DNA of 61,291 nt, counting the filler, from Catajapyx aquilonaris (taxonomy: Eukaryota): the NCBI GenBank assembly GCA_000934665.2. It is 2 parts of 2 records of this genome, joined end to end, with 100 filler letters (N's around TTAATTAATTAA, not from the genome) between each part and the next. Parts side by side here need not be neighbours in the genome. Positions count along the whole stretch, not along the records: positions 1 to 30,621 come from JYFJ02004630.1; 1 more part is not named here. The stretch is one strand, 5' to 3'. The stretch's first letter is position 1, and every line of letters starts with the position of its first letter. Below, in pieces: positions 10,720-50,277 of this stretch. The notes beneath the pieces were generated by a model. The model had not been told where the DNA came from. It saw nothing but the letters and a program-made list of their open reading frames with translations, and did no database searches. Made by a program: the position numbers and the translations under genes.

Positions 10720-13100
10720 CCCATCAAACACCTGTGCGATGGTGTCCTGGCAAAGGGAATGACCATTGCTCAAGCTAAAAAGGAAGTGCTTGCCGAAATC
10801 AAAGATAAGTGTGGGCTGGAGATTCCCATCGAGAGGTATGTTTGCTTTCTTCAGCCTTTGCACACTAGTAACGTGAAATTATATTTCAAAGTTGCCTCAT
10901 TAGGCTGAAATATCTTTATTCTAAACACTGATTTATGACCCATACATAATTTGTGTGTACATATGTCTTCCTGCTTTTGTTACTAGATGTCGACTTCGCC
11001 ATAAGAATTGGAAGAATCCAAGCACCGTGTACCTAGACCACCAGGTAATTGGAGAAGACATCAACATGTATTCAAACTGGGAGGTCCTTGTTCAGGAGCT
11101 AGAAGATGTTGAAACCGTCACATCAGACAAGCAGAACACCCTCTTTCTTCGGAGGTGGAGGCCCTCTCAGTACACACTTGACCCTTTCCAGGAGGTTGTG
11201 CTTGATACAGAAGCAGTTGATGAGCTCAAGCAGAAAGTAAGGTTTGGTCACCCAAGATTTGGGAACTTGGGACTGACTGTTTTTTCTGGCAGATATCAGA
11301 AGCAAGTGGGATTCCCTTTGAGTATGTGGACTTTGCAAAGGGTCCTGGCTGCTTCCCCTGCCCTGTGTCTCTCCTCACAATCCATCAAGAGTCTGATTGG
11401 AACCCAAACACCACTATGCTCAACACCTGGCCGCTCTACATACACAGGGACAGTCACGTCGTGTACTACAAGTCAGTTTCTCATATTATTTCCTTATACA
11501 GTGGTATTTTTATTTATCTACCCTGTGATAGGGCGGTGCCCTCGTGGGGGGACACAATGCTCGGAGAACAATGAAAAATAGGGTACTAAACAATGTGTGG
11601 GCATAATACAGTAAACATACATTACATTATCAATAACAAGTCAAAGTAAAAAAAGAAGCGATCCAGATATGATTAATCACAGAAATTGTTTAAATTGTAA
11701 GTCAACTCCTTAGGTAAGTTGTTAAACAAAAGGTGAAAACGATCCGGGGGGAATTTTGGGAAGTTGAAAAGGAATGAAAGACAGGGAGTACGGAAGAAGG
11801 GACAGACAAATAATATATGGTGTGGTGTGAAGGTTCGTTTATGTTACACCAAGTGCAATCTGACTCATTATCGAAGGAGATTCTGCGTCCAAGGAGAGAA
11901 ACACTGGGTGAATTGTGGCGGAGGTTCATCAGTAAACGAGTAGTTTTAATCGGGGTAAGGAATGCGAAATAATAAGCAGGTGAGTGGAGGGCAAGGAGAT
12001 CACGATAGTGTGAGTATTGGGTTGAAATAGAGAGTGCCTGTTTGCTTTTGGCGTCTAAAGAAATAGGAAAACAACGCAGGAGATGCTTTCACAGCAAGAG
12101 GAAGAGACAACTTGGGTGCAAATTAGATGGCGTTTTACGGAGCTGGTGCATTTTTTCGCTGCGCTCACAGTTCAACCATAGAATCATCATTAAAACTCCA
12201 GATCAAATTTCTCTCGAATTTCGCATTCGAACTCTGGAATGGTCGAAGTATGAGGGTAATTCCCTTGTCACTATCCAAAAATTAAGTCGCACACTGTGAG
12301 GTGGCTATGACTTATTGAAAGCAGATCATTATGTCATTTTGTCAGATGAAGATGGTGTAGCAATGTTCTGCTACCAGTTAGCAGCAGAGCCATGGAATAG
12401 TCGAGATATAATAGTCGTAACTGACGCAACTTCACAAGGTTTGTTGTGTCAGTTACGTTAATCCTAATCTCTCCTGAAAATATTAATATGAACAGGCGTG
12501 ATCTAAAGTAATCACAAAATTGCTCTTGAGGAGTAGATTGCATATCAGTTGTAACATTACTTCTAAACACATTCAGCTCACAGGGTTTCATGGCATTACA
12601 GTACCCCCCAAAGAGCTTGTCCTATTCATGTTGTGTGAGTTACATTACATTAATATTTTACAGAGTCCATTCAAGTTACTGTTGTGAAATTATAAAATTA
12701 TGGCAATAAGCTACCAGGAGGCACCCACATGGGAATAATTTTAAATTCCTTTCCATGAACATTTGCCATTGCCATCAATATCAATACAGCGTGAATCCTG
12801 TCCACCTGCAAATCTGTTCAGTCAGTGAGGTGTTTGAGGGATAGTACGCGTATAAATGTGCATTATAAATCCATTTTTTCTTTGAACAGGGACAGTAGAG
12901 AGGAGCTGAAATCTCTCTCTGAGGAGGAGAAGAGAGAGATAGCAGCCAAGGAAAATCCCCGCCTGGGGTCAGTAGGACGAACGGGGTCATCAACATCAGC
13001 AACAATCTCGTCAGCTTCCTGTACTCCTCGGAAGGAGAGGGCACTGAAGATATACTTGGATCAAACACCTCCATCCAGAGATGAGTTGGAAGTTGACTGA
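10720..13100 (+). CDS. USP47: Ubiquitin carboxyl-terminal hydrolase 47 (USP47/Ubp64E), C-terminal 251 aa only
   Basis: Exons 10720-10835, 10987-11236, 11293-11471 and 12890-13100 (756 nt, in phase, ends TGA). Motifs RLRHKNWKNPSTVYLD, RRWRPSQYTLDPFQEVVL, SGIP..VDFAKG.G.FPC..S.L.IHQ..DWNP, LNTWPLYI and PRKERALKIYLD match the USP47 C-terminus. AATAAA at 13810 and 14013. Confidence 0.9.
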
Positions 13101-20030: not shown

Positions 20031-20383
20031 TTATGCCTTCTTCTCGGTCTTCTTTGGGAGGAGGACGGCCTGGATGTTTGGCAGCACTCCGCCCTGGGCG
20101 ATGGTCACCCCATAGAGAAGCTTGTTCAGCTCCTCGTCGTACCTGATGGCCAGCTGGAGTCTTCTTGTCACGGGCAGCGTAGCCTGCCAGCTCGAGCACC
20201 TCGGCGGCCAAGTACTCCCATCACGGCCGCCAGGTAGACGGGGGCTCCGGCACCGACACGCTCGGCGTAGTTGCCCTCGCGGAGGAGACGATGGATGCGG
20301 CCCACGTGGAACTGGAGGCCGGCCCGGCTGGAGCGGGTCTTGGACTTCCCCTTCACCTTGCCTCCCTTGCCACGGCCAGTCAT
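20031..20383 (-). pseudogene. His2A: Histone H2A (canonical type), frameshifted
   Basis: [25 protein letters not shown]...; an extra G at VM|E (about 20217), deletion of the RIIPRH segment, ends PKKTEKKA. Stem-loop GGCCCT-TGTC-AGGGCC at 19982-19997 has a mutated loop. Confidence 0.85.
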
Positions 20384-20666: not shown

Positions 20667-21037
<371 letters not shown>

Positions 21038-21507: not shown

Positions 21508-21882
21508 ATGACTGGCCGTGGAAAGGGAGGCAAGACGAAGGCGAAGCCGAAGACCCGCTCTAGCCGGGCCGGCCTGTTGTTCCCCGTCGGCCGTGTCCAT
21601 CGTCTTCTGTGGAAGGGCAACTACGCATCTCGAGTCGGATCTGTGCCCCCCGTCTACTTGGCGGCCGTAATGGAGTACCTGGCCGCCGAGGTGCTCGAGA
21701 TGGCAGGCAACGCGGCCCGTGACAACAAGAAGTCGAGGATCAACCCCCGCCACCTCCAGCTGGCCGTCAGGAACGACGAGGAGCTCAACAAGGTCTTCTC
21801 GGGGGTGACCATCGCCCAGGGAGGGGGGCTGCCAAACATCCAGGCCGTCCTCCTCCCAAAGAAGACCGAGGAGAAGGCTTAG
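21508..21882 (+). CDS. His2A: Histone H2A, divergent, intact ORF (124 aa)
   Basis: ATG at 21508, [50 protein letters not shown]...PKKTEEKA; stem-loop AGCCCT-TTTA-AGGGCT at 21925-21940; upstream TATTTAA. Confidence 0.8.
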
Positions 21883-22439
21883 ATTCACCGTCCACACATC
21901 TCTACCGCCTCTTATAAACTAAACAGCCCTTTTAAGGGCTACCACAAGATTCACGTGAGAAGGCGAACACAGAGAGAGCAAAAATAAGCTAACCTACATA
22001 CATTGTATTGCTCAGGTTGTCTAATTTTAGCTTTTGAAACCGTGAATCGAGATACTGAAGAAAAAAAAATCCACTCTTACGGGCAAGTTGAATTGTCTGG
22101 TTACAATCAATAATTGGCCTTCTTTCGAGCTGAAATATTATATAAAAAAGTTGATGTGTTACATGTCACATCGCAGAATAATAGCAGTAAATATTAGGCG
22201 CGCCAACCCGATATAGTACATACTGTATAATATAATTTTGTAGCATGCCAGATACCTCCTAACAATGTAGCTATGTACACCACTCAATTTGCTGCTGACT
22301 GTAACAGACAAACTGACAATATTCAAATATTTCCATGCCTACCATATCATTAGAACTTCCTTCTTTTTAGCCTATCAATACTTACTTGCTATGATTGTTG
22401 TAATTGGGATCCGGTACTCGGGTGAGGGGGATATGTTTT

Positions 22440-22703
22440 TATTAGATCGCCCATTTTCTTCTGAAATGTTCCGAAGAGCTAATTGATGCTATTTGGTCCA
22501 AAATGTATATCTCAACGTGATAGGTGTGGTAGCCCTGAAAAGGGCTGTTTGTTTAAGGCTGGGGCTGGTGGTCCTTCCTAAAAGGAAGTCTGAGGAGGTT
22601 TAGGCCCGCTCTCCACGGATGGGGCGGGCAAGCTGGATGTCCTTGGGCATGATGGTGACCCTCTTGGCGTGGATGGCGCAGATGTTGGCATCCTCCAACA
22701 GGC
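22440..22703 (-). pseudogene. His3: 3' fragment of the variant H3 gene (inverted duplicate of about 24848-25110)
   Basis: Encodes [33 protein letters not shown] (stop at 22600) and carries a near-identical 3' UTR and stem-loop (22531-22546). Confidence 0.85.
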
Positions 22704-22926: not shown

Positions 22927-23135
22927 CAAGAAGTGGAGGATCATCCCCCGCCGCCTCCTGCTGGCCGTCAGTAACGACGAGGACCTCAACAAGCTTTTCT
23001 CGGGGGTGACCATCGCCCGAGTCCTGCCTAACATACATGCCGTTCTCCTCCCGAAGAAGACCGAGAAGAAGGCTTATATTCGCCCACCACCCATCTTTCC
23101 CGCCCCATATAAACAAAAGTGCCCTTTTCAGGGCT
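22927..23135 (+). pseudogene. His2A: 3' fragment of histone H2A
   Basis: [49 protein letters not shown] with the stop lost and no 5' half; stem-loop at 23120-23135. Confidence 0.85.
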
Positions 23136-23889: not shown

Positions 23890-24440
<551 letters not shown>

Positions 24441-24540
24441 GGGGCACACTCTCGGGGCGGGAGCATCATTCCTGGCTTGACTTTCGGAGAAGACGCATCG
24501 CTCGACCGCCACTCTCGCCCGCTCTTTCCACGCAGCCATC

Positions 24541-24951
24541 ATGGTCCGCACGAAGCAATCCTCCCGCAAGTCGACCGGAGGGAAGGCCCCTCGGAAGGAG
24601 CTGGCCACCAAGGCAGCGCACCCGGGCGTCTATGCCAACGGCGCGGTGAAGAGGCCCCACCGGTACAGGCCTGGCACCGTGGCTCTTCGTGAGATCCGCC
24701 GCTACCAGAAGAGCACCGAGCTGCTGATCCGGAAGCTCCCGTTCCAGCGGCTGGTCCGCGAGATCGCCCAGGATGTCAAGTTAGACCTGCGCTTCCAGAG
24801 CTCGGCGGTGATGGCCCTGCAGGAGGCCTCCGAGGCCTACCTGGTGGGCCTGTTGGAGGATGCCAACATCTGCGCCATCCACGCCAAGAGGGTCACCATC
24901 ATGCCCAAGGACATCCAGCTTGCCCGCCGCATCCGTGGAGAGCGGGCCTAA
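24541..24951 (+). CDS. His3: Histone H3, divergent variant lacking K27/S28 (136 aa)
   Basis: Intact ORF with the H3 fold and the SAVM 87-90 replication-dependent motif; tail reads [17 protein letters not shown]; stem-loop AGCCCT-TTTC-AGGGCT at 25005-25020. Confidence 0.92.
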
Positions 24952-25342
24952 ACCTCCTCAGACTTCCTTTTAGGAAGGACCACCAGCCCCAGCCTTAAAC
25001 AAACAGCCCTTTTCAGGGCTACCACACCTATCACGTTGAGATATGCACTTTGGACAAAAAAGCATCAATTACATTTGCAACATTTCGGAATAAAATGGGC
25101 GCGCTGATAAGAACAGTTATTGGTAAAATCGCGTAAGCTGCTACTTTTTAAGCAGATACTTGCTAAGAGTTACTTTCTCGAGTATCTGGAATAGCACCTG
25201 CTGATATTATATTATATATCCATGCACCTGATCTCTCGCAAATTATTTAGCGCTGTACAATATAATATAAACTCGGAGAATTTAACAGTCGTATTTTGAA
25301 GAAACCTGATTTTGGCCATTATTGGGGCGCGAAAAAGGTGTA

Positions 25343-25781
25343 TGGGACAACGACTAAAAATCAGAAAGTGAGTTATTCGGATAGTCTAAAACGTGGGCTT
25401 TCAGAATATAATATATTCTGAAAGCCCACGTTTTAGACGTTTTTAGACGTTTTTAGACGTTTTAGACGTATTATCTACCTGATATATGATAATCTGGCCT
25501 GGAGAGACGGTAGGGCCATTTGTTTGAATGCAAGTTCCGCCGGCAGCTGCGGCGTTTTCACCCGCCATCATAATGCCCCCACGGGAGAACACTGGAAAGG
25601 TCCGAAGCCATCCGATGATGGCCGGGTGAAGACGTCGCAGCTGCCGGCGGAACTTGCCTTCAAACAAAAGGCCCTACCGTCTCTCCAGGCCAGATTATCA
25701 TATATCAGGTAGATATATTCTGAAAGCCCACGTTTTAGACTATCCGAATAACTCACTTCCTGATTTTTAGTCGTTGTCCCA
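25343..25781. mobile_element. Foldback/palindromic MITE with an internal rearrangement
   Basis: TGGGACAACGACTAAAAATCAG... and ...CTGATTTTTAGTCGTTGTCCCA form long inverted arms around a short spacer (about 25572-25613). Confidence 0.75.
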
Positions 25782-26497: not shown

Positions 26498-27022
26498 ATG
26501 ACAGATGTGGTAGCAGTAGCAGCCTCGTTCCTGGGCACACCCATGAAGCTAGAGGTCTACCAAGCCCAATGCGGGGAGGACCCAGCCCAGCCATCCCGGG
26601 ACCTGTGAGATGGGGAAGGGGGCCATAAAGAGCCTGGACGAGAGAGGAGGTTCCTCCGTGCAGGTCATCAAGAAGTACATCGCCTGCAACTACAAGGTGG
26701 ACGCAGAGAAGGTGACCCCGCTCCTCAAGAAGTACCTGAAGAGCGCTGTGCTCTCCGGAGGGTTGGTCCAGGTCAAGGGGAATGGGGCCAGCGGGTCATT
26801 CAAGATCGGAGGGAAGAAGGGGTCATCGGGGACAAGGGGAAGGCGACCAAGGAGAACGAGGCCAAGCCCAGGAAGGTAGCGGCTGGGGAAAAGACCAATA
26901 GGGCGGCCCCCAAGTGGAAGAAGCCTCTTGCTGCCAGGGCCAAGGACCCAAAGACTCTCAAGCCCAAGAAGGCTGTAACCAAGAAGACCACCAAGAAGGC
27001 CCCAGCACCCAAGAAGAAGTAA
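26498..27022 (+). pseudogene. His1: Histone H1, divergent, two frameshifts
   Basis: Globular domain HP..CEM...AIKSLDERGGSSVQVIKKYI...LVQVKGNGASGSFKI; K/P/A-rich tail in another frame ending PKKK*; frameshifts near 26550 and 26830; TATAAAA at 26401; imperfect stem-loop at 27102-27117. Confidence 0.8.
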
Positions 27023-30421: not shown

Positions 30422-30621
30422 CAGTACCTGCCCTTAAAACATGGTGCACTGACTGCACTCAATAATTACTGTACTTCTATGACACAATATAATGATTTCA
30501 TTGGGTTGCATGCTGGTAATATTGGGGTGGTTCCATTTCAAATCAGGCGGAGGCTGTCAGGGCTTGGTCTCCGATTATTACGGAAAAATTACACGAAGTA
30601 CCACTGTCGAAATGATGACGA

Positions 30622-44900: not shown

Positions 44901-45303
44901 TCAGCGAATAATTTAAATGTGATTACATGATCGGAGTTTCATGTCTTTTTGTCACCTGCTCTGCTGTGACGTAAGTAAACGGCCCAAATATAGCCGGGCG
45001 GTGATGTGTTTAAATATATAATTCATAGAATCTGAAACCTAGAGAGTGGCACGAACAGGTGCAACATTCGGATTCTGGACAAAACCCTTGCCTAACATAG
45101 ATCGTCTCTATGCCAGAAGCTGACATTGTGAATACAGGACCTACTTGGCTAAAAATATTCGGACCAGCTTGTATTATTCCTGATAGCCGTCAGCAGTTTT
45201 AGAGCGGATCTGTACTGTGCAATTTCATAAGTTATTCCGCTCGGAGCAAGAATGCCAATGGGTTCAAATACAAGTAACTTCCATTACGGTCACATTAAAT
45301 ATT

Positions 45304-48300
45304 TCATTCCCTAAATTTGGCCTTGATGAAAGCAGGCAGTGGGACCACATACAGCAGCAAGTTGATGACCAGCATCCCAGCCCAGAACACGAAGCTGATT
45401 CCAAAGTTAAAGTAGAGCTTCAGATCTTCGTCGAAGGCTGGGTCCCTCAGGTGGTACCTTTCCTCCAGGTAATGGGTACCGTTCAAGTATCTGCATCCGA
45501 ATCCCGAGTTGGTGGGTGAGCACGCAAAGTCCCTTTGTTGTGTCTCGTTCCTGTAAGGAAGCAGCTGCAGGCGGTCCCTGAAGTGTTGTTCCTGCAGGAA
45601 GGCTCCTGTGTATCGGGCTTGTACTATGTAGCTCAGATAATAGAGCCAGTCGGATAATCCGGTTAAGGTTCTGCGGAGAGAAAATGAGGCTGCTTTTACA
45701 CGGAGCATGCGGATGGAATTCTGAATCCGGGTAAACAATCCCCGGTCTAAAATGGAAGCAACAAGCCCACTGGTACATTTAACAAAAATTGTTCCTTAAA
45801 TTTCCAGTAGATTAAATGTAATGAGAACCGTTTTTGGAGCACCCTAGAGGGGTACCGAATGTTCAGAGTAATTCGAAGCCTACTCCACAATATTAATAAC
45901 CGTCATCAGCGGTGGGCTCTTGTTCCTTGCCACGAGGCGTCATCTCCACACCCCATTTGTTTGCCGATAATGGCTAGAAAAACACCTTGGGCACCCCCAA
46001 AACCAGTCCCCGTCAGGACCAGACACAAGTCAAGGGGAAGGGTCCCCTTGTTTGGTGGCATATAAGCCTCCTCCAGAGCATGTCTCACAGTGCTTCTGTA
46101 TATTATTTTTTCGGCATGTACTGTATACAGCTGGTGCCGGGAGAATCGATTTGCAAAATTTGCATAGGATGGGAATATAATATACTGACTTGAGTGTTCC
46201 GCTGGCCAGCACCAGGTAGATGATGGTGAAGTAGATGCTGCAGGCAGCAGAAGTGAAGGAGCTCTTGACCACCATCATGATGGAGATTGTTTGTTGCTCG
46301 GCGAAGAGATAACAGGCCATCAAAGTGCAGGCAAACATCAACCACTGGATGTCACCTTCGATTCCTGACAGCCTAATAAAAAACATAATAATTTCTTGAT
46401 GCGCATAGTGGTACAGAACAAACCCATCAAGCACCCAATATTTAAACATCGTACCAAACTTTCTCGCCATCAGAAATTAACCGATACGCCGCAGGTTTCT
46501 ACTTTTTCCCATCCAGTATTGACAAAAACCGTGTGTGTGTGTGTGCACCGTTCCAAAGTGAAATTTCCTGGCCGCGTAATGTGAATCTGAAAGCAAATCT
46601 GTCTTCTGCAACCCGATTCTGCTGGGCTTGCTTTCTCTCTCTCCCCACACAGCTCTCAGAAACAGAGCTTGTTGATAGCGCCCGAGGAAACCTCATAAAG
46701 GTGATGTATGTATCTCACAGCACCAACCGGAGGATTTCAGACCGATAAAACACCGTGGAGATAGAAACGACCACAAACGCCTTTAGTAGATTCCTGCCCC
46801 ATATATCCACCACACATTTTAAGCTCAGGCCATTTTTCCACCATTTTCTTAGAAGAAGATAATGCGATGGAAGGCTTTCAGAGCTGGATAGATGAGCCAT
46901 AGGAGAAACTTCCTTCTTTGATAAAGCACAACTAGCAACCGCCTGCGTGTATGCAAATCCTACAAACTTGGCTCGTTAACCCGGTTGATAAGGAAGATTT
47001 GTGGCTCGCATGCTGCCTCTTTAAAGTGAGAATGTTCCGACAATTTGAGCTCTAATTTTGCACTTACCCAAACACGATCCTGGAGGCTGCTAACATGGAC
47101 AGCAATGCCATGGGAAAACTAAACAACATGTAGTTCAGGATAAATAGTGGTCCAGAATAAACTCCTTCTCTCGATTCCTGGTAGTATCTGGTGCGGAAAG
47201 GTCCAACTATAGGATTTAAAACAGAAAATGTAAGACCCAAATTGTAACTGTAACAGGTTAGATAAATTCATAGTTTGATCAGGTTGGCAGCACTGTCGGG
47301 ATCCATTTCATGGTGTCATAAAAGTAAAATCCAACTTTTGCTGATCCACATTTTTTGGTGGGCGAAATACTACCTAGGGACTTACTGAAGCGTGAATGAG
47401 ATTACCCATTTAAGATTTAACAGCTTTCAAATTACAAGATCAGATATGACTTCTCCCATATTTTCTTCTTCTTACATTATGAGAAATTGCTCCTGGTGGC
47501 AATGGAACCACTCAAGGTTTATTTCTTATGGTTGGGCAAATAAAGTGCATCGTTTGTCTGTCTAGATCCTGTCGTCAGCAAACAGAGTGACGGGCCAGAA
47601 TCACCGGGCCCCTTTTTCTCTTCTTCTTCTTTTTTATTATTTTCCTTTCCTTGCCCCTGAGGCGATAATGGAATTGAGAAATGATTTCTCCAGCTCTTTA
47701 CAAGCCGCTGGCCCAAAATCGATATGGAAGAGATCGAACTTGGTGCCGTCACACAGAGGACAATCCCCCTGGCTATGTTTTCCACAGAATTTCCAGTCCG
47801 TTGATCCTATTGTTTCGCTCCCTTTTGATCCGGTTTTCTGCTAAACTACATGACAAACAAATTATTTTTCTGGGAATGTAACAGTGGGGCAGGGGGGGGG
47901 GGGNGGGGGGGGGGGCGTGTAAAAATTTTAGCTACTTTGAAGCCATGTCGGTCCACAGTACTTTTGATGTTTGATTTGCATACGTGGTAGCAATTTTCAG
48001 CGCACATTACGCATACCATAATGCTTGACCTAGTGGAGTAAAAGGCGGAAAATGCGCAATCACGAGCGTGGAATACCATTACACTAAGTAAACTACAAGC
48101 TGACCAAAAAGGTGACGGACACATTAGTGCGAATTGTTGCAAAGTTTACTTGTTTAATATTATTTAATACTCACATGTGCATGCGGTGATGCATATGGCG
48201 AGAAAGTAAGCTCCAGCCATGCAGTTGAAGATGAGTCCGTTTCTGGACACGAACGTCCTCTGATAATTCTGCGGATACAAAAATCGCGAACCAATGAACA

Positions 48301-50277
48301 TCACCCACCCGCATATTGTATATATAAGCAGTGAGATTACAGGACGTCAGAGCTGTCAGCAAACGAATAAATCCACCCGGATTAGCCCCGGATTTAAAAA
48401 CCCGGGTGACAGGTCCCAATGTGGGTAATGGCTCACCTTCATGCCGTAGTAGAATATCCAGAGGATGAAAAAATACAGAGGAAGAAGAGCCAGTCGGAGG
48501 AACATGTCCTTCATGCCTCTCTTACGGAAATTAAAGGTGGCCGAATAGGAGCGTCTGAAAAAGATGGGTGTGTCATACAGGTTAGATTGAACCACAATAT
48601 TTAATTCATCTGATTTTTTTTCTTCCTTACGAGACGAGTGAGGCCAGGACGTGGAAGCATCCGGGCCTCCCGAATGCTGTCAGGGGCATCTTCTGCTGGA
48701 CTTCCGCCTGGTCCAGCTCCAGGGAAGGTCCAGCATATTTCCGGAAAGGTGCACCCTCCAGCTTGAATTTCTCTACCAGGGCTGCTATCTGATTTGTAGA
48801 CTCTACAAACCTATCTCGAGAACGACGGTCCACTGTAGACAAGCACACTGAAATTGAAGAAAAAAAAATGTATATGTGAGACAGCATACCAGCTAAAAAT
48901 TACTTTGCGGACTTACAGTAGTACATGAGTGGGTTCTCCAGCTCAGGACATGGAAACCCGATGTTTCTGAAGTAATCTAACATCATCCTGGTGCTTCCAG
49001 TGTACACAACGTCACCGAGACAAAGGTAGGTGACACGATCCAGGAAAGGAAAAATGTCTGAGCGAGGCTTCTCCATGGTAAGCACCACTATTCGGTTGTA
49101 CTTCTTGGCATGGTTCGATAATATCGACACCAAGAAGTAGGTGTTGAGAGGATCCAGGTCTTGAGTCGGCTCATCCAGCAGAAGCACCACTACAAGAAGT
49201 TTACAACCAGATGTTAGCATAAATCAAAGAAAGTTTCAGATTAAACTATCCTATATAGTAACCATCAGCACTTGAAGGTGAGGGTTAGAGGAAGTTACGT
49301 ATGTCAAAAACTTTTTTGCGTACGTAGTACTTGACTAAACTTTTCCAAACTCAATGATTCTTTCAGTTAGTTAATTCTTCTGTACTAATATGATCAAATT
49401 TGAAGGCCATTACTGCTGAATCACTCGTAAGGATGGCCATGGGGTGGGCAGTGGGCGGTGACCACCACAAAGTGAAAATTAAAAAGTCACGTCCTTTTAA
49501 GACACACTTTCATGAACAGTGTACCGTTCACAAACAGTGTAACTCCCAACTAATTTCAAGTTTGAGCGAGGCCCTGTAATTATGCTTTAATTGCTTATTA
49601 TTGCCAGTTTTTTTTCTATTTTCTTATACCTGGATCTTTAACCACTTGCACGGCCACCACCAGCCTGCGATATTCGCTGGTGGTTATGTCTTCCGTGCTC
49701 CAGTTGGCCACTTGTGTCAGAGCCAAGTCTCCCAGAACCTGCTTCACGCGCGACTTCTTCACGAAGCCTGACACCTGTTGGAAAGCAAGCGAAACTCATT
49801 TTATATGACAAATATTTCACAGTTTGAATTTTATATAAACACACCTTTGATCCGATGGTAAGATTGGCCGCGTAGTTGAGCGTCTGTTGCACTGTGAGCC
49901 CTGGCAAAAGGTCACTCTTGTGCGTGACATATCCGCAGTTGTCTTGGAAGAGTCGCAGGGACACTGGCGTATTGTTGAGGAGAATCTGCCCTCGTACGGA
50001 GCCTTGAGCTCTTCTGGACAATACCTCCAACAAAGCTCGCTTGCCACTGCCTGTATAATTAGACGTGGTGTACTTGGCCATTAATTGCTAAACAACTAGC
50101 CTTACCTTTAGATCCAAGAATGGCCATGACCTCTCCTCCATGCACCTCAATTGACACATCTTTCAGGATAACACCTGTCCTGATGTTACCCACCAGCTTC
50201 TGAAAGCACGTTCCTGGTTCCACCTGACCCGAATGAAACACATTGCACAGCTCCAGAACATACTCGTTGGTCATCAT
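45304..50277 (-). CDS. ABCG5: ABC transporter subfamily G half-transporter, ABCG5-like (637 aa, 10 coding exons)
   Basis: Exons 50277-50106, 50050-49845, 49774-49630, 49189-48917, 48847-48631, 48554-48437, 48268-48175, 47206-47068, 46372-46190 and 45670-45304 (1914 nt, phase-consistent). N-terminal NBD (ILGSKGSGK, LLLDEPT, FPCPELENPL) then TMD. YVLELCNVFHSGQVEPG and VPLPAFIKAKFRE recall the Drosophila CG11069 group. Minus-strand AATAAA near 44854. Confidence 0.88.

Follow-up and report, generated by a model that had tools for sequence, protein, structure and literature searches.

Orphons are solitary histone genes or units located outside the main arrays, a term that comes from the literature on sea urchins and Drosophila, and an 'orphon origin' has been cited for mussel H1 genes (reference list of PMC12153100). 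Concerning H3 proteins with an altered tail, Arabidopsis H3.15 is an atypical H3 in which a K27H replacement precludes H3K27me3 (Yan et al., 2020, as described in PMC10426802); the same account lists this plant protein with HIRA and presents it as evidence that an H3 without K27 is able to clear chromatin of H3K27me3. Human H3.5 is described as a hominid testis variant derived from H3.3, with distinguishing positions 29, 33, a missing 37, 79 and 104, in which the Phe104-to-Leu replacement weakens the contact with H4 Ile34, Ile50 and Thr54 and destabilises nucleosomes (PMC4714512). The mouse H3mm sub-variants (PMC4574566, PMC5895627, PMC13744785) are species-private H3 copies, some of them once annotated as pseudogenes, that were found to be transcribed and incorporated (PMC4574566). 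A search of the full-text literature returned no description of an H3 lacking K27 in arthropods or other invertebrates, and the term 'K27' is absent from the main text of the annelid and mollusc histone surveys PMC12153100 and PMC12210499.

The gene presented here belongs to the only histone unit (approximately 19.9-27.2 kb) found by tblastn of the window's own histones and by reading of the DNA, the window being the whole stretch of 61,291 nucleotides that was analysed (two joined record parts, the first ending at 30,621). It encodes an H3 in which R26, K27 and S28 are all replaced. Judged from its sequence, the finding is real and mildly intriguing for its non-random pattern, and its setting argues caution on any putative function.

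The H3 gene and its rewritten tail

The H3 ORF is located at 24541..24951 on the plus strand and runs open from ATG to TAA over 136 codons plus the stop, so that the disrupted frame expected of a pseudogene is absent. It encodes a 135-residue protein of H3.2 type and belongs to the core-histone family (PF00125, residues 7-132, E-value = 4.7e-47). Compared with canonical H3.2 (P0096, residues 29-164), 119 of 136 positions are identical with 0 gaps. Twelve of the 17 replacements are found in the tail (A1V, T6S, A7S, Q19E, R26H, K27P, S28G, A29V, P30Y, T32N, G34A, and K37R) and five in the fold (F78V, T80L, F104L, T107A, and L109I), while K4, K9, K14, K18, K23, K36, and K79 are retained and residues 38-77 are identical to canonical H3.2. 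At least 20 nucleotide changes separate the gene from canonical H3.2, and K27P, P30Y, and T80L take two each. An earlier sequence-only reading of this DNA had listed the same 17 replacements, the same retained lysines with residues 38-77 unchanged, and a need for at least two nucleotide changes at each of those three residues; alignment and the minimum-change count agree with it on all of these. Its further proposal, an origin from a replication-type H3.2 with loss of the R26-K27-S28 motif, also holds: the gene has A31 and S87-A88-V89-M90, which we take to be the replication-type H3 signature, and its derivation from such an H3.2 is supported by the sequence.

Four of the replacements remove canonical modification sites (R26H, K27P, S28G, and K37R), each of which is unchanged in 79-80 out of 80 H3 genes from the environment, a set that consists of the best 80 of 561 relatives and was chosen by likeness to the query. 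Among these best 80 of 561, little or no variation is seen at any of the 17 replaced positions. Additionally, the contexts of K9 (T6S, A7S), K36 (G34A, K37R), and K79 (F78V, T80L) are altered. With Pro at residue 27, it follows from the sequence that the H3 protein is unmethylatable there. If made, it could not carry methylation or acetylation at K27 or phosphorylation at S28, and R26 would be gone too; by analogy with human H3.5, its contact with H4 would probably be less stable through F104L.

The replacements are far from evenly spread. Of the 17 replacements, 8 fall in a rewritten patch at codons 26-37 (24619..24654, plus strand; [12 protein letters not shown]), and this stretch of 36 of the 408 nt also accounts for 10 out of the minimum of 20 nucleotide changes (binomial 2.3e-6). 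In the tail 12 of 37 residues are replaced, against 5 of 98 in the fold (Fisher 8.7e-5), and the tail is still richer when the patch is left out (4/25 vs. 5/98, P = 0.08). Neutral simulations reached 17 replacements free of stops in 1482 of 3000 runs, and so the open H3 frame is unremarkable as regards stops; none of these 1482 stop-free runs showed at least 8 changes per 12-residue window or at least 12 in the tail. The pattern had previously been called unlike random decay, and the simulations together with the tail-to-fold comparison bear this out, as the neutral-type spread of substitutions expected of a pseudogene is not what the H3 displays. Severity of replacement is also milder than random (mean BLOSUM62 0.12 vs. 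-0.48 +/- 0.38, P = 0.064), and each of the five fold changes exchanges one hydrophobic residue for another or Thr for Ala/Leu. Eleven of the 12 patch codons end in G or C, and GC3 of the whole gene is 0.89, near the 0.92 of the near-canonical H2B fold. Taken as a whole, the pattern of changes fits a fold that would be under some constraint and a tail that may have been released, now or in the past.

Candidate sources of the patch were also examined. A compensated frameshift or micro-inversion was rejected, as no more than 3 patch residues are recovered when 80 canonical H3 DNAs are read in the other frames or on the reverse strand. A local template switch was rejected as well: between 19900 and 27300 there is no match of at least 9 nt to the patch region on either strand, apart from one edge match that is unrelated. 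Allowing up to 3 mismatches, the patch matches itself alone in the window and no second copy was found.

Relatives of the protein were sought among candidates drawn from 5.8 billion proteins, 8000 of which were scored against the whole protein and 5287 against residues 1-45. The best 120 of the 8000 are all at most 89% identical (canonical H3 stands at 88%), and the best tail candidate among the 5287 is 80% identical (P0127) and keeps K27; no relative nearer than the canonical histones was found among the proteins scored. The exact H3, H4, and H2A sequences gave 0 matches in a collection of 15 billion proteins. In metagenome contigs, a degenerate DNA pattern for [10 protein letters not shown] gave 0 matches, and a protein-guided scan with patterns that included KAAHPGVY confirmed 561 H3 relatives, the best 80 of which are all at most 88% identical. 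The nearest of these 80 metagenome H3 loci has a DNA identity of 82%, too distant for a meaningful dS. Among the 24 sequencing-run matches listed, the best four are DNA runs from one sample of a single organism and hold 0.24-0.32 of the unit's sampled words, while the others hold at most 0.09; such shares speak neither for expression nor for habitat. The K27-less H3 that had been read from the sequence is confirmed, but a relative bearing its tail was found neither in the scored proteins nor in the metagenome contigs.

The surrounding histone unit

H3 and the divergently placed H4 have a common promoter (24202..24540) with TATA and CCAAT motifs. Specifically, the H3 TATA box is located upstream of H3 at 24434-24439, a TATA-like sequence for H4 at 24282-24287, and CCAAT boxes at 24326, 24374, 24379, and 24400. 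A histone 3' stem-loop follows H3 at 25005..25020 on the plus strand (RF00032, 27.9 bits, E-value = 1.4e-4); it scores below the RF00032 gathering score of 34, as do all six stem-loops detected in the cluster. The purine-rich GTTGAGA at 25035..25041 (plus strand) is a candidate histone downstream element, and a like motif is found 3' of all 8 stem-loops. The first stem pair of the H3 stem-loop is A-U and not G-C, having been altered on both sides with the pairing retained. This form (AGCCC...GGGCU) is common to H3 (25005-25020), the open H2A (21925-21940), and an inverted H3 fragment (22532-22547), while G-C, the usual first pair, is found in the stem-loops of H4, H2B, and the broken H2A. The presence of two stem-loop kinds in one cluster suggests a unit of mosaic descent, from two histone gene lineages. 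The sequence-only reading had described these signals as intact, and the TATA and CCAAT boxes, the stem-loop, and the downstream motif are indeed present; however, broken histone copies retain the same stem-loop and downstream motif, and intact signals are therefore no argument for function. An AATAAA is also found at 25089-25094, approximately 70 nt 3' of the H3 stem-loop, where the H3 fragment reads AAGAAA; a polyadenylated read-through transcript is conceivable and would show in poly-A RNA-seq.

Of the 8 histone pieces in the unit, five are broken, three of them by frameshifts (H1, H2B, and one H2A) and two by truncation (one H3 and one H2A). H1 (26498..27022, plus strand) has at least two frame changes, with its globular domain out of frame with the N-terminal and C-terminal parts, and the broken H2A (20031..20383, minus strand) has frame changes, an in-frame stop, and a 23-nt deletion. 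The truncated H2A fragment (22928..23074, plus strand) retains approximately the last 50 codons, with a 6-nt deletion. H2B (20667..21037, plus strand) has a single frameshift near 20783 in a histone fold that is otherwise clean. This frameshift stands at TACATCT-CAAGGTG, next to a clean 83-residue fold with the highest GC3 of the cluster (0.92); either the gene died very recently or a base was miscalled in the draft.

Besides H3, two ORFs are open. H4 (23890..24201, minus strand) differs from the fly-type H4 (PDB chain 4uuz_B) at 3 of 103 positions, G13A, G56R, and R67G, the last two being radical and out of the ordinary for a functional H4. The H4 pocket for H3 Phe104 includes Thr54, two residues away from G56R, and the neighbouring H3 has Leu104; co-variation of H4 G56R with H3 F104L is possible. 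The open H2A (21508..21882, plus strand) has 21 differences from fly H2A (6dzt_C) over 124 positions, 15 of them after residue 20. Its L1-loop is rewritten (fly AERVGAGAP to ASRVGSVPP), and R-to-W in RLLRKGNY and Q-to-L in GLQFPVGR were also found. Counted from the alignments, its private replacements number 15, compared with 6 for the frameshifted H2A, and among the 8000 scored proteins it has no relative nearer than the canonical histones. Its dN/dS against the frameshifted H2A is 0.32, that of the two dead copies against each other 0.31, and lineage-specific columns since the split number 16 in the open H2A and 14 in the dead H2A fragment. Its coding sequence has been somewhat slower than its flank (5/125 vs. 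11/100, P = 0.065).

The 3' end of H3 is present a second time as an inverted partial copy (22434..22703, minus strand), which comprises the last 33 codons (22603-22701), the stem-loop, and flanking sequence. It has F104L, T107A, and L109I like the gene, plus one extra change of Arg to Pro, and the occurrence of these derived residues in both places indicates that the odd sequence is real and exchanged locally. Aligned over 24848-25115 of the gene and 22434-22703 of the fragment, the two show 1 mismatch in the first 197 columns (24848-25044) and then 16 in 73 (P = 3e-9). Such a sharp step in identity suggests a recent gene conversion, or a recent partial copy over an older duplication, and a putative conversion tract would end just 3' of the H3 downstream element. 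On the function of the gene, the fragment carries no information.

Ordinary genes were identified on both flanks in the window, namely a USP47-type exon (11066-11578, plus strand; USP47 C-terminal domain, E-value = 3.8e-16) and an ABC transporter gene of several exons (45300-50100, minus strand; weak ABC_tran, ABC2_membrane_7, and PDR_CDR matches), and hence the histone unit is solitary and outside an array. A solitary unit flanked by unrelated genes is what defines a histone orphon, and within the window this is what was found. A foldback or MITE-like element is located at 25343-25781, between H3 and H1, with terminal inverted repeats of 68 nt (25343-25410 and 25714-25781) that are identical at 67 of 68 bases; Rfam miRNA-family matches on its hairpins are weak and sub-threshold. 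The broken neighbours and the radical changes in H4 suggest that the whole unit may no longer be held to histone standard.

Explanations for the divergent H3

We favour, with a probability of about one half, the explanation that H3 is a drifting orphon copy without a K27-related purpose. A histone unit with an H3.2 gene would have been copied from the main arrays into ordinary single-copy DNA and, once outside the arrays, would have been free of homogenisation and of dosage need. It would have been decaying since, with H1, H2B, and one H2A frameshifted, truncated duplicates of H3 and H2A formed, and a small inverted-repeat element inserted. The H3 frame would be open merely through the absence of a stop or indel so far, and the loss of R26-K27-S28 would be a by-product of lost constraint and no adaptation to escape Polycomb; a single complex multi-nucleotide event, or an earlier period of weaker relaxation confined to the tail, may have contributed to this loss. 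The sequence facts and the broken neighbours are observed directly, while the lack of selection on H3 and the orphon origin are what we infer from them. The drifting copy is preferred because the unit is alone, because five of its eight pieces are broken and the paired H4 has radical changes, because dead copies evolve no faster than the open H2A, and because no tail relatives were found in the collections searched. The strong clustering in the tail, for which no single-event mechanism was found, counts against a simple decay of the gene. So do the approximately 41 replacements (17 + 21 + 3) that the three open ORFs (H3, H2A, and H4; approximately 1.1 kb) have accumulated with 0 indels, their neighbours having several, together with the compensated stem-loop pair and the G/C-ending patch codons. 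A drifting orphon copy would be an ordinary by-product of histone gene turnover, and a caution that an open frame with intact signals does not prove function.

A serious possibility, if one short of even odds, is that H3 is a lineage-private variant that works, or worked until recently, and was kept while most members of the unit decayed. The gene, and perhaps the paired H4 and additional H2A along with it, would have been kept for a new use, e.g., in early embryos or the germ line; it would be synthesised in S phase through the histone-type promoter and stem-loop, deposited like H3.2, and would yield nucleosomes without the K27/S28 switch and with easier exchange, from the rewritten tail and the loosened H3-H4 contact. 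An open frame with all expression signals present agrees with such a variant, as do a tail far more altered than the fold, which fits constraint on the fold only, the conservative nature of the fold changes, and the G/C-ending codons kept in the patch. The same can be said of the fruitless search for a mutational shortcut to the patch (other frames, inversion, local template, and copies in the window) and of the compensatory change in the stem-loop pair, in a form common to the open H2A. Moreover, changed positions 29, 34, 37, those beside 79, and 104 overlap the differences described for human testis H3.5 (PMC4714512), and mouse H3 genes once annotated as pseudogenes are reported to have proved expressed and incorporated (PMC4574566), which warns against declaring an open divergent H3 dead from sequence alone. 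A working variant is nevertheless hard to reconcile with the location of H3 among broken histone genes, the radical changes in the paired H4, an open H2A no slower than dead copies, the lack of a tail relative in any collection searched, and an H3 stem-loop below the Rfam gathering score. In a broader form, which we consider tentative and rather unlikely, an arthropod would possess a private replication-type H3 that lacks R26-K27-S28, still has K4, K9, K36, and K79, and bears F104L with its loosening effect on nucleosomes; with a co-diverging H4 and an H2A with a rewritten L1-loop, it may make up a small variant-nucleosome set derived from an orphon unit in which the remaining members decayed. 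Such an H3 would be the first in animals to match the K27-less variants of plants. If expressed, the gene would provide an animal H3 unmarkable at K27 and S28 and made by the replication-type route, a natural experiment on chromatin with K27-free nucleosomes and on Polycomb memory through S phase, and insight into the origin of new histone variants from stray copies of array genes.

A narrower version of the working variant, in which it is deposited by CAF-1 behind replication forks and dilutes H3K27me3, appears improbable. Pro at 27 and the loss of the whole A-R-K-S motif would leave no PRC2 substrate in cis, A31 and S87-A88-V89-M90 are of replication type, and the plant H3.15 is a precedent as described in PMC10426802. 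However, R26, S28, P30, T32, G34, K37, T6/A7 near K9, and both neighbours of K79 are also altered, and with so many sites changed beyond K27 this looks like a general loosening and not a targeted K27 change; furthermore, the precedent itself is reportedly deposited by HIRA and not by the replication route (PMC10426802). That the H3 exists in order to dilute H3K27 marks is a conjecture. It was the interpretation of the sequence-only reading, in which the H3.2 origin, the loss of R26-K27-S28, the whole-looking signals, and the non-uniform pattern of changes have stood, but tail relatives were not found in the collections searched and the setting of five broken pieces among eight had been left unweighed.

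Finally, there is very little likelihood that the patch or the frameshifts of the neighbours come from mis-assembled histone repeats or sequencing error. Four N runs in the window point to a scaffolded draft, and histone repeats are hard to assemble. However, the derived F104L, T107A, and L109I were found independently at two places of the window, the gene and the inverted fragment, and the locus is embedded in unique flanks; a weaker point against an artefact is that the DNA runs holding 0.24-0.32 of the unit's sampled words come from one organism, possibly the source sample.

Comparison with known systems

Like H3.15, the present H3 is a paralogue without Lys at 27 and offers no PRC2 substrate in cis (PMC10426802). 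According to the same description, H3.15 is H3.3-like and listed with HIRA, whereas the animal H3 presented here has an independent origin, S87-A88-V89-M90, and a histone stem-loop; H3.15 is changed at K27, whereas the present gene is rewritten over the whole 26-37 segment; and function and expression have been demonstrated for the plant protein (PMC10426802), whereas the present one is known from its sequence. No similar tail was found in the proteins and contigs searched that would indicate common descent with H3.15, itself described as H3.3-like, or a conserved family of K27-less H3. With human H3.5 it has in common F104L and further differences at or beside 29, 33/34, 37, and 79, but H3.5 keeps K27, is derived from H3.3, and is expressed in testis (PMC4714512), while the present gene is H3.2-derived. 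The mouse H3mm copies are described as being a few residues off H3.3 and their expression has been shown (PMC4574566), in contrast with the 17 changes of a gene read from DNA. Compared with histone orphons and pseudogenes, the present H3 stands apart in having an uninterrupted ORF and in changes that, instead of being evenly spread, crowd into one segment of the tail; its unit resembles them in standing alone among non-histone genes, in having escaped homogenisation, and in combining open and broken copies with local duplications and a transposon-like insertion.
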